From assembly GCA_964479835.1 (NCBI GenBank), contig CAYZRE010000003.1:1-38837 (forward strand): DNA of 38,837 bases, read 5' to 3'. Below, piece by piece: positions 18,519 to 38,837 of the stretch. The notes below the pieces were generated by a model. It was not told the origin of the DNA. It saw only the letters and a program-made list of their open reading frames with translations, and did no database searches. Position numbers and translations under genes: made by a program. Source of the DNA: an uncultured Candidatus Saccharibacteria bacterium (GTDB taxonomy: Bacteria; Patescibacteriota; Minisyncoccia; 2-02-FULL-40-12; GWA2-44-9). The first letter of the stretch is position 1, and every line of letters begins with the position of its first letter.

Positions 18519-18872
18519 CTACGCCCTCAGCCGACTAATCATAGTCGCGAGCATCTTTTGGACCTCTTCGAGTAGATTAAAAGTTTTTTGCGACTCACCG
18601 ATTAGAAATAATCGATTTGCCAACAATAGTTGTGTTTCAAGTTCAGCCGCAGATCCATACGCAATTCTTAAGAACTGACTAAAATCCTTTGCGGTACTGC
18701 GCATTCTACCTTCAGCGATATTCGAAGCAATAGAAACTGCTGCTCTCCGCATTTGACTGGTGAGGCCGTAGAGCTCTTCTCTCGGAAGTTTTGCAGTAAC
18801 CCGATAAATCTCCTCGGTAAGTTCAAGGGATTTTTGCCATACGATGAGGTCTTTGAATGATTTTGTTATCAT
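18519..18872 (-). CDS. Four-helix-bundle protein (23S rRNA IVP / S23-like family)
   Basis: SFKDLIVWQKS, P.EE.YGLTSQMRRAAVSIASNIAEG, F...AYGSAAELETQL is a textbook family signature. Confidence 0.93.
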   Translation of the reverse strand: MITKSFKDLIVWQKSLELTEEIYRVTAKLPREELYGLTSQMRRAAVSIASNIAEGRMRSTAKDFSQFLRIAYGSAAELETQLLLANRLFLIGESQKTFNLLEEVQKMLATMISRLRA

Positions 18873-22088: not shown

Positions 22089-22140
22089 TCGCTGCGCTCA
22101 GGTAGGCACTCACAGATTTTGTGCCACCTTCGCTCCGCTT

Positions 22141-22258
22141 GGACCGCCGGATTCGGCGGTCTTCTGCGTTGTCGGCTCCGGTGCTCCCTCGTCGTACATG
22201 AGTACGCCTCGGTTTACTCCTCGCCGCCGTCTTGAATCCCATCCGAATACGGCGGTCC
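22141..22258. repeat. 118-bp element with 16-bp terminal inverted repeats (MITE/REP-like)
   Basis: GGACCGCCGGATTCGG (22141-22156) vs reverse complement of 22243-22258, GGACCGCCGTATTCGG: 15/16 identical. Central CGTAC-ATGA-GTACG hairpin. Confidence 0.5.
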
Positions 22259-22456
22259 TGGGAAAGAGTGCTCGCTCTGCGCCTCGCGGTCATCTCAAAA
22301 TCAGCAGTCCAGGGAGAATCCCATGAGAGCGACAGACTGCCCTGGTATCCCAGCGAGGGGCTTCGGAGCGCGACGGCGCGAGAACGAGATGCTCCGTCAG
22401 AAGACGGAGACAGCGATACCGAGTCGGGATATCGGGGCGGTAGGGAGCGATACGGG

Positions 22457-22479
22457 AACGGCTCATTGAATGAGCCGTT
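22457..22479. repeat. Dispersed palindrome AACGGCTCA-N5-TGAGCCGTT, copy 1
   Basis: Loop TTGAA. Stem identical to copies at 25614 and 32207. Confidence 0.85.
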
Positions 22480-22487
22480 TATGCGAC

Positions 22488-22515
22488 TTGAAAAAATCGT
22501 CGAAAAGAGTAGCAT
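22488..22515 (+). promoter_or_regulatory. Predicted promoter of hpf-secA
   Basis: TTGAAA (22488-93), 16 bp spacer, TAGCAT (22510-15). Confidence 0.5.
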
Positions 22516-22524
22516 GTTCGTAGC

Positions 22525-22857
22525 ATGAATATTAGTATCCACGCGAAGAACTTGGAGCTGAACGCTCCTTTGCGGGCATTCATTGAAGAGAAAATGGCTG
22601 ATATCGAGCATTTGCTTGGCGATATCGGACCCTCCCAGGTGCAGGTAGAAGTTGGTATCCCGTCCCAACATCACCATTCGGGTGCCATCTACTACGCCGA
22701 AGCGAACCTTACTATCGGCGGCCAACTGTTACGGGCCGAGGCGACGAACTATGACCTGCACTCGGCTGTCGTCGATGTCAAAGACGAGCTAAAAGTACGG
22801 ATAAAGAAGTTCAAAGACAAGCTCACCGAAGCCCAGCGCCAGCCCTCGTCCGAGTAA
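22525..22857 (+). CDS. hpf: Ribosome hibernation promoting factor HPF/RaiA, short form
   Basis: MNISIHAKNLEL...LRAFIEEK, AEANL.I.G..LRAE, DLHSAVVDV.DEL. Located upstream of secA as in many bacteria. Confidence 0.88.
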   Translation: MNISIHAKNLELNAPLRAFIEEKMADIEHLLGDIGPSQVQVEVGIPSQHHHSGAIYYAEANLTIGGQLLRAEATNYDLHSAVVDVKDELKVRIKKFKDKLTEAQRQPSSE

Positions 22858-22894
22858 TACAGCCCGTTGCTCCTGCTGTGGCGCACTCAATAGT

Positions 22895-25630
22895 ATGTTA
22901 GAATTCCTCTCAAAAATTTTTCCTGACGCCAATGCCCGAACGATTCGGTCATTTTCGTCTGCCGTAGAGCGCATCAACGCATTGGAACCGCGCATGCAGG
23001 CGTTGTCTGACGACGAGTTACGCGGGCTGACACCGGCGCTGCGTTCCCGTCTCGCGGGAGGCGAAACGCTTGATGATATATTGCCGGAAGCGTTTGCCGC
23101 AGTGAGGGAAGCATCGAAACGTAAATCAGGAAAGCGCCACTTTGATGTCCAACTTATTGGCGGCATGGTTTTGCATCAGGGGAAAATCGCACAGATGTCC
23201 ACGGGTGAAGGAAAAACACTGGTGGCGACTCTGCCGGCGTATCTGAATGCACTGGAGGGCAAAGGGGTGCATGTTATTACGGTGAACGATTATTTGAGCA
23301 GGCGTGACGCGACATGGATGGGACAAATTTATGATGCGTTGGGCGTCAGTGTCGGAGTGCTCAACCATGATGCGTCGTATCTCTACGATCCCTCGCATGT
23401 CAGTCCTGCACAGCAAGAAGCACTTGATGACGAGCGCGATGCTACCGGTTCGTTCCGCGTGGTGCACGAATTCCTGCGACCGGTAGAACGCCGTGTTGCC
23501 TACGAAGCGGATATTACTTACGGCACCAACAACGAGTACGGATTTGATTACCTGCGCGATAATATGGCGATGTCGGTTGATGCGATGGCACAGCGCCCCC
23601 AGGATACCCATCATTTTGCCATCGTTGACGAGGTAGACTCCATTCTTATCGATGAGGCACGCACGCCGCTTATCATTTCAAGCCCCGACGAAGAATCGGG
23701 ACAGCTCTACGCGGCGTTTGCCCGCATTGTGCCGCACCTCAAGGAGGGCGAGGATTTTAATATCGACGAAAAGCTGAAGGCGGTCAGTATCACCGATGCC
23801 GGTATCGACAAAGTGCAGGGCCGGCTGGGTATCGCCAATATCTATGAAGAGGGCGGGGTACGCTATGTGCACCACATGGAGCAGGCGCTCCGTGCCCAAA
23901 TTCTGTTCCGGCTTGATAAAGACTATGTGGTCAAAGACGGCGAGGTTATTATCGTCGATGAGTTCACCGGCCGACTGATGCCCGGACGCCGCTGGTCTGA
24001 TGGTTTACACCAGGCCATTGAAGCGAAAGAGAATGTGAAGGTTCAACGCGAGAGTCGTACGCTGGCAACGGTGACATTCCAGAACTATTTCCGTCTGTAC
24101 AAAAAACTGTCAGGTATGACCGGTACCGCCCGCACTTCCGCTGAAGAATTCCACAAAGTATACACACTGGATGTTGTCGCCGTGCCGACCAACAAGCCGA
24201 TGATACGAGCAGACCTCACCGACCGCATCTACAAGAACGAGGCAGGGAAATTTCGTGCACTGGCGACCGAAATTAAACGACGCAATGAGACGGGACAGCC
24301 GGTTCTCGTCGGTACGGTTTCGATTGAGAAAAACGAGATGCTGTCACTCCTGCTTACCCGCGCGGGCGTTCGCCATCAGGTACTCAATGCAAAGAATCAC
24401 GAACGGGAAGCGGAAATCATCGCGCAGGCCGGACGGCTTGGTGCGGTCACGGTCGCAACCAACATGGCCGGACGCGGTGTCGACATCATCTTGGGCGGGA
24501 ACCCGTCCGATGAAACCGAAGCAGCCAAGGTACTCCAGTTGGGCGGGCTGTGTGTCTTCGGCACGGAGCGGCACGAAGCACGGCGCATCGACGACCAACT
24601 CCGCGGTCGTGCCGGTCGTCAGGGTGATCCGGGCGCGAGTCAGTTCTTTGTTTCCACAGAAGACGAGTTGGTGCGCGTGTTCGGTGGAGACCGACTGACG
24701 AACATCATGACCACGCTGGGCGTGACCGATGAAGATGTCATTGAGAATCGGTTGGTCTCGCGTTCGATTGCGCAAGCACAGAGCCGCATCGAAGGCCGCA
24801 ACTTCGATTCCCGAAAATATGTGCTGGAGTATGACGATGTGATGAATAAGCACCGCCAGACTGTATACAACCTACGCCGCGAGGTGCTCACATCGTCAGA
24901 CAACAAAGACCGGGTTCTGGATTATCTGCACACGCAGATGCGCTCGCTGGTGTATGCGCATATCAATCAAGAGACAGGCGAGTTCGACAGGGAAGAAATT
25001 GCCGAGGCATGTCGCGCTATTGCTCCGTTTGATGAATCATTGCACCGCACCCTGACGGCCAAAGCCGCCGAGGGCGCGTTCGGAGCCGCTAACCCCGATG
25101 AGCTTGTGGCATACCTGCAGGACGAAGTCGAGCGTTTGTATGAAGCGCATGAACAGCAGATGGGGGATACGCAAATGCGTGCCATTGAGAAGGCGATTAT
25201 CCTGCGTGCCGTGGACGATGTTTGGGTGGACCACATCGAAGCCATGGAGCACCTGCGCGAAAGCGTGAGTCTGCGGGCCTACGGCCAGCGCGACCCGCTC
25301 GTCGAATACAAGATTGAGTCACAACAAATGTACGCGACGCTCATGGACACTATTGCCGGACGCGTGGCGGGCATCATCTTCAGAGTGCAAATGACGGACC
25401 CGGCATCTGGTACTGGCCAGGAGAAAAAAAGAACCCTGCAAGAACAGCGCCCCGATATTACCGGCGACGAAGCAATCGCAAAACTGGATACCAACGACAC
25501 CGCCGCATCTGAAGTCACCATTCACTCCGACCATGTCGGTCGCAACGACCCCTGTCCCTGCGGTTCAGGCAAAAAATTCAAGAAGTGCGGACTCCTGGAT
25601 ACCGAGGAGCACAAACGGCTCACTCAATGA
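22895..25630 (+). CDS. secA: Preprotein translocase ATPase SecA
   Basis: MSTGEGKTL, TVNDYL, YGTNNEYGFDYLRDN, IVDEVDSILIDEARTPLIIS, ATNMAGRGVDI, QLRGRAGRQGDPG, and a C-terminal SEC-C motif. Confidence 0.99.
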   Translation: MLEFLSKIFPDANARTIRSFSSAVERINALEPRMQALSDDELRGLTPALRSRLAGGETLDDILPEAFAAVREASKRKSGKRHFDVQLIGGMVLHQGKIAQMSTGEGKTLVATLPAYLNALEGKGVHVITVNDYLSRRDATWMGQIYDALGVSVGVLNHDASYLYDPSHVSPAQQEALDDERDATGSFRVVHEFLRPVERRVAYEADITYGTNNEYGFDYLRDNMAMSVDAMAQRPQDTHHFAIVDEVDSILIDEARTPLIISSPDEESGQLYAAFARIVPHLKEGEDFNIDEKLKAVSITDAGIDKVQGRLGIANIYEEGGVRYVHHMEQALRAQILFRLDKDYVVKDGEVIIVDEFTGRLMPGRRWSDGLHQAIEAKENVKVQRESRTLATVTFQNYFRLYKKLSGMTGTARTSAEEFHKVYTLDVVAVPTNKPMIRADLTDRIYKNEAGKFRALATEIKRRNETGQPVLVGTVSIEKNEMLSLLLTRAGVRHQVLNAKNHEREAEIIAQAGRLGAVTVATNMAGRGVDIILGGNPSDETEAAKVLQLGGLCVFGTERHEARRIDDQLRGRAGRQGDPGASQFFVSTEDELVRVFGGDRLTNIMTTLGVTDEDVIENRLVSRSIAQAQSRIEGRNFDSRKYVLEYDDVMNKHRQTVYNLRREVLTSSDNKDRVLDYLHTQMRSLVYAHINQETGEFDREEIAEACRAIAPFDESLHRTLTAKAAEGAFGAANPDELVAYLQDEVERLYEAHEQQMGDTQMRAIEKAIILRAVDDVWVDHIEAMEHLRESVSLRAYGQRDPLVEYKIESQQMYATLMDTIAGRVAGIIFRVQMTDPASGTGQEKKRTLQEQRPDITGDEAIAKLDTNDTAASEVTIHSDHVGRNDPCPCGSGKKFKKCGLLDTEEHKRLTQ

Positions 25631-25636
25631 GCCGTT
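25614..25636. repeat. Dispersed palindrome AACGGCTCA-N5-TGAGCCGTT, copy 2
   Basis: Loop CTCAA. Contains the secA last codons and TGA stop. Confidence 0.85.
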
Positions 25637-25685
25637 AATTCTGGGCGATTTTATATAATACTGAAGCTATACAGGAGCGGCATGG

Positions 25686-26189
25686 ATGGCGTATACTGAA
25701 GACATGCGAAAGGAGGGATTCTTACGCAATTTTATCTTCGGTGTCGAAGACTCGCTGGTTTCGACCGTTGGGTTTGTGTCCGGCATCGCCGCCGCTTCTG
25801 TTGAGCGCAACACGCTGTTACTATCAGGTGTCGTCCTCGTGTTCGTGGAGGCTTTCTCCATGGGTATCGGCAGTACATTATCCGAGGAGTCTGTGCAAGA
25901 AGCACGCACCCGGCGGAGCGCTCGTTGGGGAGTATCGGTCGCAGGGGGGTTTGTCATGTTTGTCTCATATATCTTGACGGGTCTTTTCGTGCTTTCTCCG
26001 TACCTCGTCAGCGATGTCTCTCATGCACTTTTGCAGTCAATCGCCCTGTCTCTCGGACTTTTATTCCTTCTTGGTGTCGTGTCAGCTAAGATCACCGGTC
26101 TTCCGATACTTCGTCGGGCGTTTCGGATGATGATAGTTGGTGGGCTGGCAATTCTGTTGGGTATCATCGTAGGACATCTTATGCTCTGA
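25686..26189 (+). CDS. VIT1/CCC1 family metal (Fe/Mn) transporter
   Basis: LRNFIFGVEDSLVSTVG, EAFSMGIG..LSEE. TATAAT at 25654 and an AGGAG RBS upstream. Confidence 0.9.
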   Translation: MAYTEDMRKEGFLRNFIFGVEDSLVSTVGFVSGIAAASVERNTLLLSGVVLVFVEAFSMGIGSTLSEESVQEARTRRSARWGVSVAGGFVMFVSYILTGLFVLSPYLVSDVSHALLQSIALSLGLLFLLGVVSAKITGLPILRRAFRMMIVGGLAILLGIIVGHLML

Positions 26190-26190
26190 C

Positions 26191-27093
26191 ATGCCACAAC
26201 AAGTGCTCATTATCGGCGCCGGAGCCCTGGGAACCGCGCTTGGGAAGATCATGCCGAAGGACCACACGCAAGTGGCTTTTTGGGATATCGATGAGGCTAA
26301 GTGCGGAGGTCCGAGACAGCCGCTGGAGACGCTTGTGCCGGCCGCTGATTTTATATTCATGTGCATCCCCAGTTGGGCGATGCGCCCCTCGGTGTCGCAA
26401 TACTCCGCTCTAATCAAGCCAACGACCGTGGTGGTCTCTCTCGCGAAGGGCCTTGAATCACCGACTGCAAAAACAATGTTCGAGGTGTGTACCGAAGTAC
26501 TCCCGCCAAACCAGCCGGTGGTTATCATGGGAGGCGCTATGCTGGCATACGAAATCGGTTCAGGTCTCCCGGGCATGGCGGTCATCGCCGCCATGGATGA
26601 TGCGGTGGCCGCAAATCTCATGGCGTTATTTAATGGGTCTGTGTTGCAACTGTCCTGGTCAAGCGATGCGCGTTCAGTTGCCATCGCCGGCGTACTGAAG
26701 AATGTGTATGCCATCATGCTTGGTATTGGCGACGGTCTGGGCTTGGGCAGTAACACGCGAGGATGGTTATTTGCACAGGCGGTTCAGGAAATATTGGAAA
26801 TAGGCAGACTGATGCATGCTGATCCGCTGGTTCTCTTGTCTGTGGCAGGCATCGGAGATTTAGTCGCGACGGGCCTGTCGCCCCAATCGAAAAATCATAC
26901 TGCCGGCGTCCAGCTGGCGCAGACAGGCCGCACGGCTCTGGAATGTGAGGGTATCATGTCATTCCCATCAGTACTGCAGTCAGTGGGACAGCGTCCTAAT
27001 CTACGGCTCCTGAACGCCATCGAAGCTATTTTGTTACGAGGCCAGAATGTCCGCATCGTAATACAGGACCTCATATACAAAAAAACATCGTGA
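26191..27093 (+). CDS. gpsA: NAD(P)H-dependent glycerol-3-phosphate dehydrogenase
   Basis: IGAGALGTALG, VSLAKGLE, GVLKNVYAI.LG..DG..LG.N, GIGDLVAT. Confidence 0.88.
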   Translation: MPQQVLIIGAGALGTALGKIMPKDHTQVAFWDIDEAKCGGPRQPLETLVPAADFIFMCIPSWAMRPSVSQYSALIKPTTVVVSLAKGLESPTAKTMFEVCTEVLPPNQPVVIMGGAMLAYEIGSGLPGMAVIAAMDDAVAANLMALFNGSVLQLSWSSDARSVAIAGVLKNVYAIMLGIGDGLGLGSNTRGWLFAQAVQEILEIGRLMHADPLVLLSVAGIGDLVATGLSPQSKNHTAGVQLAQTGRTALECEGIMSFPSVLQSVGQRPNLRLLNAIEAILLRGQNVRIVIQDLIYKKTS

Positions 27094-27195
27094 TCGTGAA
27101 CGAACCTGTGGACTACTGCATTTGTGAGATGTGTCTCTCGATGAGATAATACAGCAGACCTGTCTGCGCAGACAGGATTGAAGGGAGGTGGTTAT

Positions 27196-27390
27196 GTGAA
27201 ATTCGCAAAAATCGCCTGGTGGCTATTGGTGATCGGCGGCCTGAACTGGGCCCTCGTGGGTTTGTTTGGGAAAGATCTGTTTTCACTCATAGGATTGGAC
27301 TTGAGTTCGTGGTTGGCACGGCTCGTGTACCTTCTTGTTGGTATTTCCGCACTGTACGCACTGTTCGGAAAAAAGAGCTCGTCCCTCTAG
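27196..27390 (+). CDS. DUF378 family small membrane protein
   Basis: LLVIGGLNWALVGLF..DL...I.G......RLVYLLVGISALY. GGAGG RBS before GTG 27196. Confidence 0.88.
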   Translation: MKFAKIAWWLLVIGGLNWALVGLFGKDLFSLIGLDLSSWLARLVYLLVGISALYALFGKKSSSL

Positions 27391-27408
27391 GACGGGTTTT
27401 TATTATGA

Positions 27409-27445
27409 GCGGAAGGCCCCGAGAGGGGGCTTTCTGCGTTTTTTT
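27409..27445 (+). terminator. Intrinsic terminator after DUF378 gene
   Basis: GCGGAAGGCCCC-GAGAG-GGGGCTTTCTGC stem followed by a T7 tract. Confidence 0.75.
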
Positions 27446-27655
27446 ATGCAAACAAATGCGGAAATGCGTCGTTCCGACGCGAGAGATATCTTCTGTAGGC
27501 CCTCGCGCATATGCGCTTGGGCACGAATAGCCGGCCATATTTACAGAAGAAGAGCGGCTATTCGTCAAGGTTGCGTCATAGTGCCGGCCCGTATACGATG
27601 CCGCAGTCGAACACCCAATTCCATGAAACGAGCCGCACAAAAAGACTTGACAGTT

Positions 27656-28078
27656 ATGCCGAAAAGCGGCGATTCGCTTGTTGATTGGGTGTTCCGTCAG
27701 TTTGTGCTCGTTCTGCAGAGCGAACGGGTCAGGGTGACCCGCAAGAAGCGTTTGGTGAACCCCGACGACCCCCACCGGAAGGTTATTCGCGGCCTTATGG
27801 ACCCCGATATTCACCCGTCGGGCAACTGGGTGCAAATCCTTATCAATCCTGCCAAGAATACCCACAAGAGCCGCAACGAAGAGGTAGAGACACTTATGCA
27901 CGAGCTCGCGCATGTCATCTTGCCTCGAAGTGGAGAACGCTCGATTCTCTCAATGGAAGGTTTGTTGGCACGCCGGTTTTCATCCGCACAGCGCCGGTAT
28001 CTGAAATCATTCATTCCGAAGCATGAAGTGAAACATTACCCGCGTCTTGGTGTTCTTGGGCGTGTTGCCACTGCTTAG
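27656..28078 (+). CDS. Hypothetical small protein with HEXXH motif (ImmA/IrrE-like metallopeptidase motif)
   Basis: ETLMHELAHVIL. Start uncertain (ATG 27623 or 27656). Confidence 0.55.
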   Translation: MPKSGDSLVDWVFRQFVLVLQSERVRVTRKKRLVNPDDPHRKVIRGLMDPDIHPSGNWVQILINPAKNTHKSRNEEVETLMHELAHVILPRSGERSILSMEGLLARRFSSAQRRYLKSFIPKHEVKHYPRLGVLGRVATA

Positions 28079-28129
28079 AGGCGGAGTATAGTGAGGGTGC
28101 TACCCGCTCACTGACAATCGGAGGCAGAA

Positions 28130-29212
28130 ATGAAGAACCGTCTGAAGAAGGAGTCTTTGGTTTCACTCATCGCCGGCCTCGCGCTGGCAGCGTTCGTGAT
28201 CCCCTGGTCATTTTCGACCATCAGCAAGTCCAACGAACTCCTGCGACAGCAGCAGGAGATGCTCACACCACTCGCCCCGAGCACCCAAGGGATTGCTGTT
28301 GACGAGAGGACACTCGACGAGCAGTTCGCGCGCGCCAAGGTTGCCGAGCGTGACCCCATCGCGATTCACCGACCCGTGCATCTCGCCCGGGCGTCCGAGC
28401 CGTCCCGCTCTGCGTACTCTATCGTGCCCCAGGGTTCATCGGAGCTTGTGCCGCTGGACGGGTGGGTCGACCAGCCCAACAAGGACCGGCCAGGCCGCCT
28501 GCACACGAATCTCAAGTGGCGCTGGGCCAACAAAGCAAAGCCCAGACCTAGTGGTACGGGCAAGGTCAGCGACGCGGAGCCGATGCTCGATGAGCCTCCG
28601 AACACCCGTTTCGAACCCGGGTACATCATGGTCGCCTGGTCCGGCACGGATGACCGAGCACAGGAACATGCCAAGCCCCGCGACGACAAGCAGACGAAGA
28701 CTGAGCGCAAACGCGATACGCCGCCTCCGAAGGCTCGCGAGGGCGAGCAGACAAAGACGCAGGCGCCCGCAGACCGCAGTGACGCCCAGCGTCGCCAGCC
28801 TCAATCCACGAACGACGGCCGCCGTGACCGCGACAACAACGGCGACCGCAGCACCAAGACCGATGCCCAGAGGCGTCAGCCGAGACCGAACGGCAACTAC
28901 GATCGGTACAGCTGGCGCAAGTACGACGGGCGATCTCATGGGGCTCGTGACCGCTTCCCGCGCTCCTACGGTGGCTCGCGCTATTTCGACCGCCGCTTCT
29001 ACCGCGGCAACCTGTTCGGCTCGCACGACCGTCTCTGGTACAGCTACCGGAACGCATGGCGCCTGTTCTACTGGCCCTATCCGTATGCTCCTTTGTACGG
29101 CTGCGGGTGGTACTTCGTTCCTACGGATCGCGTGCTCGTGTACGACCCGTACTCTCGTGAGGAGTACTGGGAATACACAAACTACGAACGGGCCTACCTC
29201 TGCTTCGACTGA
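28130..29212 (+). CDS. Hypothetical membrane-anchored protein with low-complexity charged linker and Tyr/Trp/Arg-rich C-terminus
   Basis: TATAGT -10, GGAGG RBS, N-terminal TM, consistent C-ending codon bias, downstream terminator. Confidence 0.7.
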   Translation: MKNRLKKESLVSLIAGLALAAFVIPWSFSTISKSNELLRQQQEMLTPLAPSTQGIAVDERTLDEQFARAKVAERDPIAIHRPVHLARASEPSRSAYSIVPQGSSELVPLDGWVDQPNKDRPGRLHTNLKWRWANKAKPRPSGTGKVSDAEPMLDEPPNTRFEPGYIMVAWSGTDDRAQEHAKPRDDKQTKTERKRDTPPPKAREGEQTKTQAPADRSDAQRRQPQSTNDGRRDRDNNGDRSTKTDAQRRQPRPNGNYDRYSWRKYDGRSHGARDRFPRSYGGSRYFDRRFYRGNLFGSHDRLWYSYRNAWRLFYWPYPYAPLYGCGWYFVPTDRVLVYDPYSREEYWEYTNYERAYLCFD

Positions 29213-29229
29213 GCGCACAGTGCGCTTAC

Positions 29230-29265
29230 TCCCTTCCGTCCTTGCGGCGGAAGGGATTTTTCTTT
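29230..29265 (+). terminator. Intrinsic terminator
   Basis: TCCCTTCCG...CGGAAGGGA followed by TTTTTCTTT. Confidence 0.75.
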
Positions 29266-29309
29266 ACTCTCATCACGGCTCGTTCAAAAGCCGGAAAGGA
29301 GAGAGTGCC

Positions 29310-30722
29310 ATGGGCGATCGGAGCCTCTTTAAGCGGTGCGTGCTCAAAACGAACGGAATGCTCGTTGTGAACTGGGCGAACCGATTTGCCAATGTCTCCG
29401 GAGTCGGCGTTGCGGTGGGGTGCGCTGATGACCCGTCTTGGTTGGACGGTGCTGCACATCTGTGGGAGCACATCGTCTGTCGTCGGAGTAACACCTACGA
29501 CGACCACCAGGTCAACCTCATGCTCGAGCGCTACTTCGGCGGTTCCGATGGTATGGACATCAACATCTGCACGACATGGTTCTACACGTTCTACGGGCAC
29601 TTCGATTTGCGCCGTCGCGCATACCTGAAGGACACCTTCCCGCTCATGGCGACCATGGTACGGGATGCGGTCATCGAGGCGCACAACAATCGCGAGAGCG
29701 ATGTGCGGCTCTACGATCTCAAGGGTCTGCTCGTTGAACGCGGAGCTGTACGCAACGAAACGGCACTGTATCGCGATGACCTCGGCCGCCGTATCAGCGA
29801 CATGTTGCACTACGAGCTGTACCGAATCAATCCGGTGCGACGACCGGGCGATGCGGATATCGCTCAACTGCGCAAGGTGACCAAAATCGGCCGTCTGAAG
29901 CAGTGGGCCGCCGGCCACTACGTACCGGAGAAGATGTTCGCTATTTTGGGAGGTCCGACCCAAAAGGATGCACTGGAGCTGGTTGCCGAGGCGGGTCTGG
30001 ACCAGCTCAAGCCCTATAAAGGCGTTGCGTCCGAATACGACGGCAGTGACGACATGCCGCAACTCACGGGCGTGCGGGACATCGTCATCGATCGGGCGGG
30101 TATCCATCAGACCCATGTGGGTTGGGCGTGGCCGACCGAGTCGTTTCTAACCGAGGACGGCCCTGCGTTGGAGGTCCTCGCGCGTCTGATGAAGATGCGC
30201 ATGGAGTGCTCGCTCCGCGAGGAGAACACGGACATCGATGCCGGTGTCTACCATCCCGCAGTAGCTTGGTATGCCTCCAAACATCACGGCCTCCTGGAAG
30301 CCTGGTTCTCAAGTGTCGGCGGTACTTCGTATATTGAGCAGGCCGAGGCGCTCGTCACGGACATCTGCGGACATCTGCGCAGTGACACAAGCACGGCCTT
30401 CGCTGAAGAGGTTGAGGCCATCCGCCACAACGAGATGGACACGTTGGACTACGAGTGGCTCTTTGACCATGGCGGTCTCTGCGAACGCATCGCGACGCAC
30501 ATCTCTAACGGCGACCGCGAGCTCATTCGTCTGGACTCGCTTCGTCACCGTATGGCCAAGGTGACCCCGGAGGATGTCCGGGCGGTGGCGAACAAGTACC
30601 TCACCACCGAAAGGTATGTGCGCGCACTCATCCGTCCGGTTTTCGTCCCGCAGGATGTCCACGACCGGGCGGCACCCGAGTTCCAGCAATACCTCAAGTA
30701 CCTTCTGCGTCCTGCCGAGTAA
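29310..30722 (+). CDS. M16 family (pitrilysin/insulinase-like) zinc peptidase
   Basis: Inverted zinc motif HLWEH (HxxEH), INICTTWFYT, LLVERGAVRNE, VTPEDVRAVANKYL. Start at ATG 29310 with an AAGGAG RBS, not at the listed 28293. Confidence 0.85.
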   Translation: MGDRSLFKRCVLKTNGMLVVNWANRFANVSGVGVAVGCADDPSWLDGAAHLWEHIVCRRSNTYDDHQVNLMLERYFGGSDGMDINICTTWFYTFYGHFDLRRRAYLKDTFPLMATMVRDAVIEAHNNRESDVRLYDLKGLLVERGAVRNETALYRDDLGRRISDMLHYELYRINPVRRPGDADIAQLRKVTKIGRLKQWAAGHYVPEKMFAILGGPTQKDALELVAEAGLDQLKPYKGVASEYDGSDDMPQLTGVRDIVIDRAGIHQTHVGWAWPTESFLTEDGPALEVLARLMKMRMECSLREENTDIDAGVYHPAVAWYASKHHGLLEAWFSSVGGTSYIEQAEALVTDICGHLRSDTSTAFAEEVEAIRHNEMDTLDYEWLFDHGGLCERIATHISNGDRELIRLDSLRHRMAKVTPEDVRAVANKYLTTERYVRALIRPVFVPQDVHDRAAPEFQQYLKYLLRPAE

Positions 30723-30741
30723 TCGGCAGGACGTTTCTTTT
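30708..30741 (+). terminator. Intrinsic terminator overlapping M16 stop
   Basis: CGTCCTGCCGA-GTAA-TCGGCAGGACG (11 bp) followed by TTTCTTTT. Confidence 0.8.
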
Positions 30742-30761
30742 ATTCGTGTTAGACTTTCTCT

Positions 30762-32207
30762 ATGGAGCAAAAGCAAAAATTATCAGCTACGCACTTCTAT
30801 AAGTTCTTCCAGTGTCCTCACTGGATTTGGTACGACATTTACGCCGACAGCTCAAAGAAGCACGAGACCTCGCCGCTGTTGGATATCATCTACAAAGGAA
30901 AGATGCAGGATGCGGCCGGCTCGCTGGGAGCGCACAAAAAATTCGAAGAGCTCAAACCCGAACAGTACCGCGACCTGGAGGAAGCATACTTAGCAACATT
31001 GGCGCTGATGAAGCAGGGCAAGAACATCTACCACGGCGTGCTGATGACCGAAGATTGGGTGGGGATGCCGGATTTACTCGAAGCTCGGCCGGGCCACAGT
31101 TCGCTGGGCGACTTCCAATATGTTGCCTACGATGTCCAGCGCAATCTCGAACTCAAGGACGAGCACAAATTCCCACTCGTGTTCTACTCTCTTATCTTGG
31201 AGAAGATTCAGGGTGTGCGGCCTACTGAAGCATTCGTTATTGACCCGCAGGGCCATGAGCGGTCGTTTCTGGTGGGAGACTTTGTATCCCAGTTCCACAC
31301 AACACGCGCAGACATCGAGCGCATCCTCGCGGGCGATAAGCCGGCGCCGTTTCTGAAGTCCAGTTGCAAACGAACCCCGTGGTATTCGTTGTGCCTGGAG
31401 GGAACCGAGGGCTGTAACGATGTATCACTTATCTACCGGCTTTCGCAGGCCGACCAGCGACGCTTGTATGGCATCGGCATTCACACGGTCGCCGAACTTG
31501 CCGCCGCCGATGGCGACGACCTGCGCGGCAAACTGGAGGACTGGCAGTATGACAAAATCGTCCGGTTCCAAAATCAGGCACGCGTGCTCATGAGCGGTGA
31601 ACCACTCATCATCCGCAAACCGATGTTCCCACAGGTGCAGTATGAGGTTTTTTTCGACATCGAATCCGACCCGACCAGGGATGTTGATTATTTGTTGGGC
31701 ATGCTCGTACGCGACACGAAGTCGAACAAGGTGTTTTACTACCATCTGATTGCGGAGAAGCCGGAAGATGAGGCGGCGATGTGGGCAAAGTTTCTTGATG
31801 AGTTGGCAAAGTGGGAAGACTTCGCCATCTATCACTATGCGTTCTACGAGAAAATGGTATTCGATCGACTCGCTCTGCGGCACGGAGTCCCGCCGCTGTT
31901 GGCGCAGAAGTTCCACGAACACTCCGTTGACCTTCACCAGAAGACTATTGATTCAGTCGTGCTCCCGCTCTACTTCTACACACTAAAGGATGTGGCGAAG
32001 TACTTGGGCTACGCCTGGAGCGATGCCGAGGCCGGTGGCGCCGAGTCGGTCGTGTGGTATGACACATGGCTGCGCACCGGCGATCGCGCATCGCTCGACC
32101 GCATTATTCGCTACAACGAGGACGATGTTCGCGCCACCATGCTTCTGCGCGACTGGCTTGCCTCTCAAAAGCCCTCTAAGGGCAAGGCCGAAAAACTCGA
32201 AGAGTAA
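30762..32207 (+). CDS. TM0106-family RecB-like putative nuclease with C-terminal RNase H-like domain
   Basis: GMPDLL, HhH-like YGIGIHTVAELA, FFDIESDP, YHY..YE, VDLH, YTLKDVAKYLGY.W, YNEDDVRAT. Confidence 0.85.
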   Translation: MEQKQKLSATHFYKFFQCPHWIWYDIYADSSKKHETSPLLDIIYKGKMQDAAGSLGAHKKFEELKPEQYRDLEEAYLATLALMKQGKNIYHGVLMTEDWVGMPDLLEARPGHSSLGDFQYVAYDVQRNLELKDEHKFPLVFYSLILEKIQGVRPTEAFVIDPQGHERSFLVGDFVSQFHTTRADIERILAGDKPAPFLKSSCKRTPWYSLCLEGTEGCNDVSLIYRLSQADQRRLYGIGIHTVAELAAADGDDLRGKLEDWQYDKIVRFQNQARVLMSGEPLIIRKPMFPQVQYEVFFDIESDPTRDVDYLLGMLVRDTKSNKVFYYHLIAEKPEDEAAMWAKFLDELAKWEDFAIYHYAFYEKMVFDRLALRHGVPPLLAQKFHEHSVDLHQKTIDSVVLPLYFYTLKDVAKYLGYAWSDAEAGGAESVVWYDTWLRTGDRASLDRIIRYNEDDVRATMLLRDWLASQKPSKGKAEKLEE

Positions 32208-32231
32208 ACGGCTCATTTGGTGAGCCGTTTA
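32205..32231. repeat. Dispersed palindrome copy 3 (TAAACGGCTCA-TTTGG-TGAGCCGTTTA)
   Basis: 11-bp stem beginning at the TAA stop of the nuclease gene. Confidence 0.85.
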
Positions 32232-32247: not shown

Positions 32248-32276
32248 TTGACAAGAGTGAGCGATATTGTCATCAT
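32248..32276 (+). promoter_or_regulatory. Predicted secDF promoter
   Basis: TTGACA (32248-53), 17 bp spacer, CATCAT (32271-76). Confidence 0.45.
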
Positions 32277-32298
32277 GAGCGGCGTCAGAGAACCTCGC

Positions 32299-33597
32299 AT
32301 GGCACGAAATTCCAAAATTCTCTTCGGTATCATTCTCGTCTCGCTCGTACTGTTTGTCTTTGTGGCTCCAAATTGGGTCAACGGCGCGACGGGTGCGCTC
32401 AACAGTGTATTTCCGAAGTGGATGATTAAAATTCCCGCCGTCGGCGAGAAGCAATTTATACTCGGACTGGATTTACTTGGCGGCGCACACCTGCTCTATC
32501 AGGCTGATTTCTCCGGTATGGCTCCCGATGTGGATAAAGCATCGGCGATGCAGGGTGTTCGAGATGTCGTGGAGCGTCGTGTCAACTTCTTCGGCGTTTC
32601 CGAGCCGACGGTCCAGGTGTCCGGAACCGACCGTCTTATCGTAGAAATCGCGGGTGTGACCGATGTGAATCAGGCCATCAAACTTATCGGCGAAACGCCG
32701 TTCTTGGAATTCAAGGAGCAGGGCGTTCTTCTGGACGCAGAGGCATGGGTGTCCACAGGACTTTCGGGCAAACAGCTCAAGCGAGCTTCGGTGACATTTG
32801 ACCCACAGACTCGCAAGCCGCAGGTCGCGCTGGAGTTCAACGACGAGGGGACAAAGCTTTTTGCGGCCATCACGAGGCGCAATCTTGGCAAACCGGTGGC
32901 TATCCTCTTGGACGGAGCTCCTATTAGCGCCCCAGTTGTGCAGAGCGAGATTACCGACGGAAGCGCGGTGATTACGGGGACATTCGGTGCAGCGGAAGCA
33001 AAACTGCTGGCAACGCGTCTCAATAGCGGCGCCCTGCCCGTTCCCATCAAGCTCATTTCTCAACAGACTATCGGCGCCTCCCTTGGCCAGCAGTCTCTGC
33101 GTAACAGTTTACGCGCCGGCATATGGGGACTTATCCTGGTCGCATTGTTCATGGTTTTTTTCTATCGTTTGCCCGGTGCGACTTCTATTTTGGCGCTTGC
33201 GGTGTATCTGCTCATCACGCTGGCGGTCTATAAGGTATTGCCGGTGACGCTGACACTCGCGGGTGTGGCGGGGTTCATCCTATCGCTGGGCATGGCATTG
33301 GATGCTAATGTACTTATTTTCGCCCGCATGAAAGAGGAGTTATCTGCCGGCCGACCGCTCGGGATGGCATTGACGGAGGGATTTCGCCGGTCATGGCCGT
33401 CCATCCGTGACAGCCATGTGACCGCGTTCATCAGTGCGTTTGTTTTGTATGTGTTCACCACATCCATTGTGCGTGGGTTTGCGCTTACCTTGGGTATCGG
33501 GGTTATCTTAAGCTTGTTCACATCGATTGTTGTAACCCGTAGTTTCCTGCGCGCATTCGCGGGTCGCTTGGGGCAGTATCGTTGGCTGTTTTCCTGA
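32299..33597 (+). CDS. secD: Protein translocase subunit SecD
   Basis: LGLDLLGG, V.ERRVNFFGVSEP, IVEIAG, AILLDG, L.SGALP, TLTLAGVAG, GMALDANV. Start placed at ATG 32299. Confidence 0.96.
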   Translation: MARNSKILFGIILVSLVLFVFVAPNWVNGATGALNSVFPKWMIKIPAVGEKQFILGLDLLGGAHLLYQADFSGMAPDVDKASAMQGVRDVVERRVNFFGVSEPTVQVSGTDRLIVEIAGVTDVNQAIKLIGETPFLEFKEQGVLLDAEAWVSTGLSGKQLKRASVTFDPQTRKPQVALEFNDEGTKLFAAITRRNLGKPVAILLDGAPISAPVVQSEITDGSAVITGTFGAAEAKLLATRLNSGALPVPIKLISQQTIGASLGQQSLRNSLRAGIWGLILVALFMVFFYRLPGATSILALAVYLLITLAVYKVLPVTLTLAGVAGFILSLGMALDANVLIFARMKEELSAGRPLGMALTEGFRRSWPSIRDSHVTAFISAFVLYVFTTSIVRGFALTLGIGVILSLFTSIVVTRSFLRAFAGRLGQYRWLFS

Positions 33598-33598
33598 C

Positions 33599-34492
33599 AT
33601 GAAACACATCTACACCAGTATGTTTGTCATATCGATTGCCGTGTTTGTAGCGGCGGCGGTCGCGTTGATGGTGTATGGCTTAGATTTCGGTGTCGACTTT
33701 ACGGGCGGGAGTATTCTGGAGGTTCAGTTCTCGGAGCGGCCTGCTACCGATGACATTACCGCTGTACTTACTAACCTGAACCTGCCGGCACTGCAGGAGA
33801 TTTCGGTGAGCCCCAGCGGCGACCGGGGGGCCCTCATCCGTAGCGGGCCTCTGACCGAGGAGGAGCACCAGGAAGTCTTACGCCTTTTAAACGAAGCTTT
33901 CCCGGACGCCAAAATGACCGAAGCGCGATTTGACTCTATTGGCCCCGCGGTCGGCGCAGAGCTGCAGCGCAAGAGCGTCACGGCAATCATTATTCTTCTG
34001 GTGGCGGTGCTTGTGTATATCGCATGGATGTTCCGGACATTATCGCGCTCGCTATCTCTTTGGGCGATGTCTGCCGGTACATTACTTGGTCTTGCCCATG
34101 ACATCATTATTCCGATGGGCGTCTTCGCGGTACTCGGCCATTTCATGGGTGTACAGATTACCGGCATCTATGTTGCGGCCATCCTGACCATTCTAGGATA
34201 TACCGTTTCTGATAAGGTTGTTATTTATGATCGCGTTCGCGAGAACCTTCTCCGCGGCTCCAAGGAGCCGTTGCCCGATGTGGTTCATCGAAGTGTTATG
34301 CAGACATTGGTCCGTTCTATCAATAACACCCTAGTTGTTATCCTGTCGTCCCTGGCCGTCTTCTTGTTCGGCGGGGAAAGTATCAAGTATTTTGCGTTAG
34401 CGTTAATGCTCGGCATTGGCCTGGGGGCTTACTCGTCGATTTTCGTCGCAGCGCCAATCCTCGTGTGGATGGGACGGCGTGGCGGGCGATAA
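33599..34492 (+). CDS. secF: Protein translocase subunit SecF
   Basis: GLDFGVDFTGG, IGPAVG.EL, HDIII, LTILGY...D.VVIYDRVREN, RSINNT, GAYSSIFVA. Confidence 0.96.
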   Translation: MKHIYTSMFVISIAVFVAAAVALMVYGLDFGVDFTGGSILEVQFSERPATDDITAVLTNLNLPALQEISVSPSGDRGALIRSGPLTEEEHQEVLRLLNEAFPDAKMTEARFDSIGPAVGAELQRKSVTAIIILLVAVLVYIAWMFRTLSRSLSLWAMSAGTLLGLAHDIIIPMGVFAVLGHFMGVQITGIYVAAILTILGYTVSDKVVIYDRVRENLLRGSKEPLPDVVHRSVMQTLVRSINNTLVVILSSLAVFLFGGESIKYFALALMLGIGLGAYSSIFVAAPILVWMGRRGGR

Positions 34493-35712: not shown

Positions 35713-35738
35713 AAGGTCTCTTTACGGGGGCCTTTTGT
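35713..35738 (+). terminator. Possible intrinsic terminator
   Basis: AAGGTCTC-TTTACG-GGGGCCTT with a short T-tract. Confidence 0.5.
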
Positions 35739-35778
35739 GCTTCTGTGGTATAATTTCTCTAGAACACATCTCACACAC

Positions 35779-37107
35779 ATGGTGGATATTTCTGTCATTC
35801 TCGAGTGGCTTGGGCGGGGATCCTCGCTGGTTTTTGAGTATTGGTGGGCATGGCTGCCGCTGGTACTGGCAATGATGGCGTACTCCTCATGGATGGGATA
35901 CCAGAAGGCGAAGTATATTGCCGGCATGAAATGGACACTTCTGGAAGTTATTCCGCCACCGGAAATCCTTTACAGCAGCCCGAAAGCCGCCGAGAACTTT
36001 TTCGCGGGTCTGCACGCTAGCTACGGTGGCGGTGTTAAATGGAAAGAACAGGTATTCGGCGGCAAGATACCGGACTCGTTTACCTTGGAGATAGTTTCCA
36101 ACGGCGGGCCGACACATTTTTTTGTCCGATGCACAGAAGGTGCGCGTAATATGGTGGAAGCACTTATCTTCGCGCAATATCCACAGGCAGAGATCCGAAT
36201 CGCCGAAGATTATGTAAATTTACTTCCCGACGAGTTCGACCCCACACAGTACGATGTGTCCGGTACCGAGTTCGTATTTACCCAGCCCCCCGCATATCCC
36301 ATCAAGAGCTGGACGGAGTTCGAGGAGGCGGGCGGCAAAGACGAATATGCGCGCCTGGACCCGTTGGCGCCGCTGTTGGAAATCATGAGCGCGCTTCAAC
36401 CGACCGAATATCTGTGGCTCCAATATGTTATCCGGCCGACAGGGGGCGATTGGGTCAAAGCCGGGAAGGCGGTTGTCGACAAGCTCATCGGTCGCGAGGC
36501 AAAGCCGGCCCAAGAACCATTCCTTCTGATGGTGTTTTCTCTGCCGTTTAAGCTTATCGGGGCACTGGTGGGCGCATTTATGGAGTCGCCCACTGTGGAG
36601 GAAAAGAAAAAAGAAGAAAAACCATTCAGTCTCCAGAGTCTCACACCCGCGGATAAGTTGGCACTTGAGCAGATACAGGTAAAACTCTCGAAGCTTGCGT
36701 TCAAGGCATGCATTCGTGTTTTTTATGCGGCACGCAAAGAGGCATTTAACGGCGCGCGAGCCGCAAGCGTAAATGCAATGTTCAAACAATTGTTCCACAA
36801 TAATATGAATACCTTCAAACCCGGACCGGGGACAAAGGACAAAGGATTACTGCCCTGGATATTTCCCCATGATAAGGGTTTTTTCACGGAGGAACGGACG
36901 ATGAAAAAGAAAAAACGCATGTACGGTTCATATCGCAAACGGGCATTCTCGCTGCCACCGACAAATCCGAAAGAATTTTCCATTATTCTCAACACCGAGG
37001 AACTGGCGACGCTGTGGCATTTGCCGAGTTTGAATGTAAAAGCGCCGCTGATGCCACGCGTGCAGTCGAAGAAAGGCCAGCCTCCCGCAATGCTCCCAAC
37101 CCGCTAA
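35779..37107 (+). CDS. Conserved hypothetical membrane protein associated with VirD4/HerA-like ATPase
   Basis: N-terminal TM, LLEVIPP, FTLEIVS, QYPQAEIRIAEDY, YPIK, ILNTEELATLWHLP. TG-extended TATAAT at 35749. Start at ATG 35779. Confidence 0.75.
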   Translation: MVDISVILEWLGRGSSLVFEYWWAWLPLVLAMMAYSSWMGYQKAKYIAGMKWTLLEVIPPPEILYSSPKAAENFFAGLHASYGGGVKWKEQVFGGKIPDSFTLEIVSNGGPTHFFVRCTEGARNMVEALIFAQYPQAEIRIAEDYVNLLPDEFDPTQYDVSGTEFVFTQPPAYPIKSWTEFEEAGGKDEYARLDPLAPLLEIMSALQPTEYLWLQYVIRPTGGDWVKAGKAVVDKLIGREAKPAQEPFLLMVFSLPFKLIGALVGAFMESPTVEEKKKEEKPFSLQSLTPADKLALEQIQVKLSKLAFKACIRVFYAARKEAFNGARAASVNAMFKQLFHNNMNTFKPGPGTKDKGLLPWIFPHDKGFFTEERTMKKKKRMYGSYRKRAFSLPPTNPKEFSIILNTEELATLWHLPSLNVKAPLMPRVQSKKGQPPAMLPTR

Positions 37108-38782: not shown

Positions 38783-38837
38783 CCGCCCGTAGCTCAGTTG
38801 GTAGAGCTGCTCCCTTTTAAGGAGAAGGTCGCTGGTT
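38783..38837 (+). tRNA. tRNA-Lys (anticodon UUU), 3'-truncated by window edge
   Basis: CCGCCCG-TA-GCTC-AGTTGGTA-GAGC D-arm, CTCC/GGAG anticodon stem with loop CTTTTAA (TTT at 38816-18), AGGTC variable loop, start of T-arm GCTGG-TT. Confidence 0.9.

Follow-up and report, generated by a model that had tools for sequence, protein, structure and literature searches.

A dispersed palindrome at gene ends in Patescibacteria, probably acting as a terminator-like hairpin

Three copies of one palindrome around secA and secDF

We analysed a stretch of 38,837 nt of DNA (hereafter the window; contig CAYZRE010000003.1 of assembly GCA_964479835.1, from an uncultured Candidatus Saccharibacteria bacterium) in which three copies of a short palindrome stand among genes for protein export. 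At this locus, hpf, the gene of a ribosome hibernation factor of the S30AE family (PF02482; 22525-22857, + strand), lies upstream of secA (22895-25630, +), which was identified by its Pfam SecA domains. A VIT-family gene and then gpsA come after secA; further on are the gene of a TM0106-family RecB-like nuclease (30762-32207, +; PF13482, TIGR03491) and, according to Pfam, secD and secF (32248-34492, +). The nearest named relatives of this SecA belong to Candidatus Yanofskybacteria and Paceibacterota, with an identity of at most 79%, which makes the source a Patescibacterium, a bacterium of the candidate phyla radiation. The palindrome, AACGGCTCA-N5-TGAGCCGTT, was matched exactly at three starts, 22457, 25614 and 32207, as the initial annotation had described: the stems are identical and the 5-nt loops differ. 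Copy 1 occupies 22457-22479 (loop TTGAA), copy 2 25614-25636 (loop CTCAA), and the 9-bp core of copy 3 32207-32229 (loop TTTGG). Dinucleotide-preserving shuffles gave a chance expectation of 0.04 copies in the window, and none of 100 shuffles reached three. Moreover, the 9-mer half-site was confined to the three palindromes in the window, where allowing up to three mismatches did not reveal any extra copy. A fourth, degenerate copy had been proposed at 29275-29293 (ACGGCTC..AGCCG). The sequence exists, but we rejected it as a member of the family, since it is a 5-bp CGGCT/AGCCG stem with an 8-nt loop, is located in a minus-strand open reading frame (ORF) and was not recovered at three mismatches or fewer.

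Each copy lies at or near a gene end or a predicted promoter. Copy 1 is upstream of hpf and ends 8 nt before the promoter-like site of hpf-secA (TTGAAA-N16-TAGCAT, 22488-22515, +), which is kept in four related contigs, L114, L117 and L118 among them according to the alignment. Copy 2 overlaps the last secA codons, K-R-L-T-Q, with the TGA stop (25628-25630) lying in its right arm, so that the 3' end of secA is made of the palindrome. At copy 3, the stem has its foot in the TAA stop of the nuclease gene (32205-32207), on whose last base the core begins, and a TTGACA is found 18 nt downstream, at 32248. The stem of this copy lengthens to 11 bp (32205-32231; TAAACGGCTCA-TTTGG-TGAGCCGTTTA), while copy 1 can alternatively be closed as a 10-bp stem with a 3-nt loop. 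The predicted RNA fold energies were -16.8, -14.6 and -20.6 kcal/mol for copies 1, 2 and 3, respectively. The details that the first description gave of the three copies were confirmed. The statement that each copy stands just ahead of a promoter also holds for the three copies of the window; however, this is simply how a gene-end element looks in a compact genome. The offsets to the predicted -35 were 8 nt for copy 1 and 18 nt for copy 3, with copy 2 overlapping it, none being alike.

Distribution of the palindrome across genomes

In a scan of public genomes, with one genome per species and 596 Gb in total, the palindrome was found at at least 111 loci, and among the matches listed more than half of the loci were from Patescibacteria. 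Several copies were present per genome. In the sampled pieces, the Paceibacterota metagenome-assembled genome (MAG) DASPGX held at least 13 copies in 12 pieces, the Jacksonbacteria MAG JABIPD at least 15 and the Patescibacteria MAG JAYEGB at least 12. The matches listed also included nine Saccharibacteria MAGs, as well as Yanofsky-, Zambryski- and Jorgensenbacteria, Kazan and others. The GC content of the palindrome-bearing Patescibacteria ranged from 0.31 to 0.62, and an M16 peptidase that they share was 33-44% identical between most of these genomes, and 60% identical for one pair. The matches listed outside Patescibacteria were single loci, falling into two orthologous hairpin groups plus scattered singletons; the latter are about what is expected in 596 Gb from chance plus terminator-like palindromes.

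As a control set, we used 80 SecA-anchored metagenome loci (1.1 Mb) that are related to Patescibacteria and were chosen without regard to the motif. The exact palindrome occurred once in these loci. Their 114 perfect hairpins contained no comparably recurrent stem: the most frequent ones were present in three loci and were generic A/C-rich runs. No variant ('dialect') palindrome was detected in the close relatives of the window or in the 80 control loci, only unique terminator stems. A viral collection gave three matches to the palindrome, with no enrichment in phages. Altogether, the palindrome is a real repeat family that is strongly enriched in Patescibacteria, and it is patchy, with many copies in some lineages and few or none in most.

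The two Proteobacteria groups look orthologous within themselves, with a stem sequence kept across genera and loops that vary. In Enterobacterales (Serratia, Yersinia, Buttiauxella, Photorhabdus and Brenneria; loci L006, L011, L014, L024, L030, L044, L056, L065, L074, L084, L099, L102 and L103), there was one copy per genome, near genes of 123 and 138 aa and accompanied by A- and T-tracts. In Comamonadaceae and related genomes (loci L001, L009, L016, L018, L035, L036, L043, L047, L049, L061, L071, L075, L086, L090 and others), the single copy per genome had a CAATG/CATTG loop and usually stood beside a 168-aa gene.

In some Saccharibacteria, the palindrome was located inside larger repeats (L031:625-750 and L082:5904-6122, both from one MAG; L048:540-589; L053:5780-5819; L041:4829-4860). 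One of these, a unit of about 95 nt, contains a nested outer palindrome, AAAACGGCTTTG...CAAAGCCGTTTT, and has another, degenerate hairpin close by. In addition, single arms were repeated in tandem in Saccharibacteria, AAACGGCTCAT three times and GAGCCGTT twice.

Conserved arms, free loops and copy-specific flanks

The unit can be written (A/T-rich)-(T)(A)AACGGCTCA-Y-NNN-R-TGAGCCGTT(T)(A)-(A/T-rich); it is two-fold symmetric and its 9-bp arms are invariant. In the Patescibacteria loci, the arms occurred almost solely as '+-' pairs with a gap of 5 nt, a few having 4 or 6 nt, and single arms were rare: 26 of 28, 28 of 30 and 6 of 6 half-sites were paired in three sets. Degenerate copies were few. 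The loops, on the other hand, were almost all different, with 65 distinct sequences among 72 copies.

Beyond the arms, the pooled half-site logo showed an A-rich segment (-7 to -4), T at -2 (75%), A at -1 (54%), AACGGCTCA and a pyrimidine at +10 (83%). Of the loops, 78% had Y...R ends, the combinations at loop positions 1 and 5 being C..A (17), T..A (16), C..G (12) and T..G (11). Watson-Crick pairing of these two positions was found in 43% of the loops, compared with 36% expected if the arms were independent. The pyrimidine at +10 is not a product of pairing. When copies were oriented by the upstream gene, loop-closing T..G and C..A were equally frequent (7 and 8).

The outer flanks behaved differently, since they were specific to each copy and yet complementary (AAATATTT, AATCTT/AAGATT, CAAATTTT/AAAATTTG, ATAAATC/GATTTAT). 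Perfect stems reached 18 bp, and one Saccharibacteria copy was within a 73-bp palindrome. The mean complementary extension past the core was 3.2 bp, as compared with 0.77 bp in flank shuffles. This was also seen within genomes, with 3.9 against 1.2 bp in DASPGX and 4.9 against 2.2 bp in JABIPD. In four of five groups, the observed extension was matched by at most 1 of 2,000 shuffles; in JAYEGB it was not significant (P = 0.08). The extended stems had almost no internal mismatches and, as they were nearly always perfect, a comparison of wobbles tolerated in RNA or in DNA met too few G-T or A-C positions. These results indicate two components: a core that is sequence-specific and two-fold symmetric and, in each copy separately, a need for a longer hairpin structure or a mechanism that generates one. 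From the paired flanks it follows either that folding of the element is important or that hairpin-templated synthesis renders the flanks palindromic.

Presence and absence of copies in close relatives

Contigs with a SecA 90-96% identical to that of the window were syntenic with it, in the order hpf-secA-...-gpsA-...-RecB-like nuclease-...-secD. No palindrome copy was found in L112-L116, which are of this identity range, or in L118, which has a partial SecA match; their terminators were unique. L117, whose SecA is 92% identical, carried copy 1 only, at the orthologous site (L117:47-69). Conservation at the orthologous secA and secD loci, a check suggested at the outset, was thus not observed: copies 2 and 3 are absent in the relatives and copy 1 is present in L117 only.

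Between the window and L117, all 18 stem bases of copy 1 were the same, while the loop had changed at three of five positions (TTGAA to TGCAG) and the adjacent flanks had diverged by about 23%. An identical stem amid diverged flanks indicates that the stem sequence is constrained. At this site, L114, L115 and L118 had GCCCCCTTCCC-GTTG-GAGGGGGGC followed by TTTTTT, 8-10 nt before the conserved hpf promoter. As an ordinary terminator with a GC stem and a T6 tract takes the position of copy 1, base for base, in these relatives, the palindrome fills a terminator slot.

Copy 2 was unique to the window. SecA ends with ...EEHKRLTGRR* in L117 (AAACGCCTAACG...TGA) and with ...EEHKRRAGAK* in L115, and ends earlier in L112 and L114. 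The left arm of copy 2 aligned at 9 of 11 bases with K-R-L-T codons that pre-exist in L117, and the right arm is the new stop. Copy 3 was also unique to the window, being absent in L112, L114, L115 and L117. Here, the end of the nuclease gene reads ...GAA-TAG-GG... in the relatives and ...GAG-TA[AACGGCTCA...TGAGCCGTT]TA-GG... in the window, as would be expected if the element had been inserted at the stop-codon TA, leaving TAG-G behind it. We considered a TA target-site duplication, of the IS630/mariner-like type, as a general rule and rejected it: copy 3 fits, but the flanks are generally inverted complements (TC...GA) and not direct repeats. Further away, JAYEGB and the Kazan MAG, which are the pair with the 60% identical M16 peptidase, both had a copy downstream of ndk; the flanks of the two are unrelated and their loops differ in size. 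DASPGX and DATJZE were tried as a filled- and empty-site pair and set aside, the genomes being too divergent for comparison.

Copy 1 is also the 3'-terminal hairpin of a larger region. Between a metallopeptidase-like gene and hpf lies a GC-rich, non-coding region of about 370 nt (22089-22456, +), homologous to L117:8938-9168 plus L117:1-46, that is, to both ends of that contig, where no gene was called in L117. The fold z-scores of this region against shuffles were -4.8 and -4.7 on the two strands, and the two-sequence alignment of the window and L117 contained 8 compensatory pairs. The region matched no Rfam family, raiA included. It looks like a candidate unannotated structured RNA that is ended by the palindrome just upstream of hpf. 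L117 itself is a Logan contig of 9168 bp whose end meets its start with neither gap nor overlap, at a point within this conserved region. In the assembly graph, the 9.2 kb running from hpf-secA to the nuclease gene thus form a closed loop, which may represent a tandem duplication, a segment flanked by repeats or a circular form.

Position of the copies relative to genes

With simple ORF calls, the flanking genes were co-directional for 41 intergenic copies, convergent for 10 and divergent for 7; 8 further copies were 'inside' ORFs, several of which are probably spurious. In the divergent cases, one flanking ORF each had no Pfam domain support. The median distance from the upstream stop to the copy was 38 nt, with many copies within 40 nt. 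Moreover, 5 of the 41 co-directional copies overlapped the stop codon, three through a TGA in the right arm (offset -17) and two through TA-A (offset -1). Copy 2 of the window is of the first type and copy 3 of the second.

The neighbouring genes were ordinary ones of many kinds. The 110 neighbouring proteins contained 122 Pfam families, none of which was present in more than three proteins, and SecA was present once. GTPases, aminoacyl-tRNA synthetases, tRNA-modification enzymes, SMC, elongation factors, NDK, RecA, TGT, ligase, PolA, RF-1 and BipA were among them. In AT-rich hosts, the copies were followed by strong T tails. In L123, an AT-rich relative, the copy stands after murB and is followed by TATTTTTTATT; Jacksonbacteria copies are followed by TATTTT.

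A probable role as a gene-end hairpin

The explanation that we consider probable is that these hairpins are a dispersed palindrome of Patescibacteria, similar to the repetitive extragenic palindromes (REPs) of other bacteria, and act as a bidirectional terminator or a 3'-end stem-loop. Gain and loss on the timescale of close relatives suggests that new copies are made from existing ones. Such copying would proceed by insertion or by templated conversion, rather than by slow evolution of each terminator. Copies lie at or just past gene ends, at times rebuilding the last codons and the stop. In the transcript, they form a stable hairpin that would act in both directions between transcription units, either as a terminator or by protecting the 3' end, and a putative sequence-specific reader would keep the arm sequence exact. 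A terminator-like role is supported by the equivalence of copy 1 with the terminator slot of the relatives, by copy 1 closing the structured region and by the A- and T-tract flanks in AT-rich hosts. As to this reader, base preferences that are symmetric and independent of pairing suggest recognition of each arm, as DNA, by a sequence-specific factor.

Several observations weigh against this explanation. The T-tracts of the window copies are weak, with 4-5 T in 8 nt counted from GTT. The short U-tracts had been remarked upon from the start by comparison with the clear terminators of the window, which indeed have long T-tracts on unique GC-rich stems: one at 27409-27437 (+; T7 tract, -24.3 kcal/mol), one at 29230-29256 (-19.8 kcal/mol) and one at 30707-30734 (-24.1 kcal/mol). 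Since strong ordinary terminators are present in the genome, the hairpins would be at best moderate intrinsic terminators. The symmetric preference for Y at +10, independent of pairing, points to recognition of the arms as DNA and not to a constraint at the RNA level. Oriented by the upstream gene, the copies had 3.8 downstream T and 3.9 upstream A, without any T excess; the element is without direction-specific adaptation. Likewise, the co-directional, convergent and divergent classes (41/10/7) were roughly proportional to the background (327/82/75) with these crude ORF calls. The overlap of the left arm of copy 2 with older codons is more readily explained by conversion or decay than by a clean insertion. 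Neither a transposase nor another driver was detected among the 110 adjacent proteins, in the window or when 481 proteins were clustered all against all. Finally, the only sequencing run that matched the window was a permafrost DNA metagenome, and no RNA run did. Marine metatranscriptome contigs covered a Jacksonbacteria locus, L066, too sparsely to be of use, and for L082 and L042 no usable run was found.

Ordinary bidirectional intrinsic terminators resemble the copies in many respects: they stand after stops and before the next promoter, form a stable stem-loop (about -15 to -21 kcal/mol for the copies of the window) and have A- and T-rich flanks in AT-rich hosts, and copy 1 lies where the relatives have a canonical terminator. 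They differ in that their stems are unique, none of the 114 control hairpins being present in more than 3 of 80 loci, and in that the T-tract of the palindrome is weak in the GC-rich genome of the window. Repeated hairpins are known elsewhere. TRIT is a conserved terminator-like hairpin motif of Mycobacterium tuberculosis. Families of stem-loop sequences have been catalogued across bacterial genomes (PMC2267715). Both TRIT and the catalogued families are repeated hairpins with a conserved stem sequence at gene 3' ends, some of them without U-tails; however, they are specific to a genome or a genus, whereas the palindrome described here spans several classes of a phylum-level radiation. The copies had no Rfam match at an E-value of 10 or better, nor at gathering thresholds. 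In the literature, either 9-mer was found only in unrelated papers (primers and the like), and searches turned up nothing relevant on an uptake sequence or a REP/RAYT system in Patescibacteria.

Alternative explanations

A lineage-specific REP-like element was one of the two interpretations of the initial annotation. The part that holds is that the palindrome is short, dispersed, multi-copy and mostly extragenic; the lineage-specific part does not, the same core being found in several divergent classes of Patescibacteria. In its strict form, this interpretation would have the palindrome moved as single-stranded DNA by a REP-associated tyrosine transposase (RAYT; an IS200/IS605-type Y1 HUH enzyme) encoded elsewhere, both spreading horizontally in Patescibacteria. 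We consider this rather unlikely. The REP/REPIN-RAYT systems of Enterobacteria and Pseudomonas are likewise short palindromes with tens of copies or more per genome, mostly intergenic and often just after stops, whose hairpins in mRNA are able to stabilise or terminate transcripts and whose copies differ between related strains. A mobile element of this kind would agree with the patchy distribution of an identical sequence, with the presence and absence of copies between close relatives, with the apparent insertion of copy 3 at a stop-codon TA and with the copy-specific paired flanks, by which hairpin formation matters. However, two hallmarks of REPs were not seen. First, there is no GTAG-type tetranucleotide: the stems are perfect, without a bulge and with a free loop, and the logo contained only T(-2) and A(-1) outside the arms. 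Second, neither a RAYT nor another Y1 transposase was detected within the ~0.5 Mb around the copies that was searched. In particular, the IS200-type transposase that had been suggested as a thing to look for was found neither among the 110 adjacent proteins nor in the window, and no neighbour gene recurs. A tblastn search with an approximate IS200 TnpA query also gave no match in the Patescibacteria loci, although this is a weak test. In addition, the copies are single hairpins and not REPIN doublets or bacterial interspersed mosaic elements (BIMEs), and their flanks are inverted complements instead of direct target duplications. Finally, REPs are normally specific to a species or a genus, whereas the core of the palindrome is identical across Paceibacterota, Yanofskybacteria, Jacksonbacteria, Saccharibacteria, Kazan and others.

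That last point could be accounted for if the palindrome were the signal of a sequence-specific machine common to Patescibacteria, either an uptake signal that works only as an inverted pair, analogous to the DNA uptake sequence (DUS) of Neisseria, or the target of a hairpin-binding factor for termination, processing or recombination. If true, which seems to us improbable, a shared machine would explain how 18-22 nt stay letter-perfect across genomes of 31-62% GC and 33-44% protein identity while loop and flanks drift.

An uptake signal proper is less likely. The arms would then be the DNA-uptake signal of Patescibacteria competence, comparable to the DUS of Neisseria and the uptake signal sequence (USS) of Pasteurellaceae, and the inverted pairs at gene ends would double as terminators. 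Patescibacteria depend on DNA uptake, and the core is constant whatever the GC content of the genome, both of which count in its favour. Among the systems that we compared, the inverted-pair terminators made of DUS and USS bear the closest resemblance to the palindrome, with identical arms of 9-11 nt, an A-rich 5' extension that gives A- and T-tails, a single pair orientation ('+-') and long stems with poor T-tails (PMC1852404). The two differ in that the half-site is almost never single here (26/28, 28/30 and 6/6 paired), while in N. meningitidis about 24% of the roughly 1,900 DUS are paired (PMC1852404). The density, moreover, is of tens of copies per genome and not of about one per kb, or about 1,000-2,000 per genome. 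Copies are not found inside genes except at gene ends, close relatives are entirely without the motif and the 1.1 Mb of control loci has one copy, and no paper describing an uptake sequence in Patescibacteria was found.

We also give little credence to the palindrome being the duplex site of a homodimeric DNA-binding protein, such as a nucleoid or boundary protein, a roadblock-type terminator or a global regulator. The two-fold symmetric, pairing-independent preferences (Y at arm position 10, 83%; T(-2), 75%) and the lack of strand or direction asymmetry are what such a site would show. The operator of HrcA, CIRCE, is a precedent, with exact 9-bp arms kept across phyla. Like the palindrome, CIRCE is a perfect 9-bp inverted repeat with a free spacer (of 9 nt) conserved in very distant bacteria; unlike it, CIRCE is known from chaperone promoters only, in 1-2 copies per genome, whereas the palindrome is generic, multi-copy and placed at gene ends. 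A variable spacing of 4, 5 or 6 nt is not typical of a dimer on duplex DNA, and the copy-specific complementary flanks indicate a folded hairpin and not only a duplex. Furthermore, the neighbouring genes share no function, the offset to promoters is not fixed and copies enter coding 3' ends.

Finally, an operator co-regulating the export genes (secA, secDF) and the hibernation gene hpf, the other initial interpretation, is refuted, also by the criterion that came with it: the three window copies do flank hpf-secA and secDF, each before a predicted promoter, but other genomes have at least 13-15 copies per MAG beside unrelated genes with no enrichment of Sec or hpf (SecA 1 of 110), the orthologous hpf-secA and secD loci of the relatives are without copies 2 and 3 and mostly without copy 1, the -35 offsets differ, and the clustering of the copies in the Sec region is not meaningful because the first 22 kb of the window has hardly any intergenic space.

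Patescibacteria are a very large and mostly uncultured radiation with tiny genomes, and to our knowledge almost nothing has been reported on the punctuation of their transcription units or on their mobile DNA. A palindrome of 23-27 bp that is the same in remote classes, is gained and lost among close relatives and rebuilds the ends of genes implies that there is either a micro-element that spreads horizontally or a conserved reader not described so far. The element is a marker of gene ends in the genomes that bear it and accounts for some altered C-termini, such as that of SecA, and it may break assemblies. It could also serve as bait for pull-downs and as a candidate terminator or uptake signal for new genetic systems of Saccharibacteria.

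Other features of the window

The stretch between copies 2 and 3 is a variable region, as the relatives differ in their genes there. The gene after secA is the VIT-family gene in the window and a P-type ATPase gene in L112-L116. Between gpsA and the nuclease gene, the window has three ORFs (27335-30116) of 247, 360 and 296 aa, the last on the minus strand, for which Pfam and NCBIfam gave no significant match; in the same slot, the syntenic relatives carry other genes, namely a DUF378 gene, small ORFs and, in some, an M16 peptidase gene.

Downstream of copy 3, the predicted promoter of secD (32248-32280; TTGACA-N17-CATCAT with an upstream TG) reaches the first in-frame ATG, so the secD transcript may be leaderless or have a very short leader. 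The TTG at 32248 is at the same time the start of the longest secD ORF and part of the -35 hexamer. A sigma-factor-like gene comes after secF and, further on, there are two adjacent paralogous ORFs (35737-37107 and 37111-38703, +). The second one is similar to type IV secretion coupling proteins (TrwB/VirD4, TraG-D_C, HerA-like ATPase), and homologues were found in two other Patescibacteria loci, L038 and L059. The 5' part of a tRNA gene, truncated by the end of the window, was detected at 38783-38837 (+) with the Rfam tRNA model (34 bits) and was unreported by ARAGORN.

At the other end, a surface-polysaccharide cluster of glycosyltransferase and methyltransferase genes extends over 83-20278. 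At the edge of this cluster lies a free-standing gene of the '23S rRNA intervening-sequence protein' type (18519-18872, minus strand; PF05635), which has homologues in two Saccharibacteria loci.

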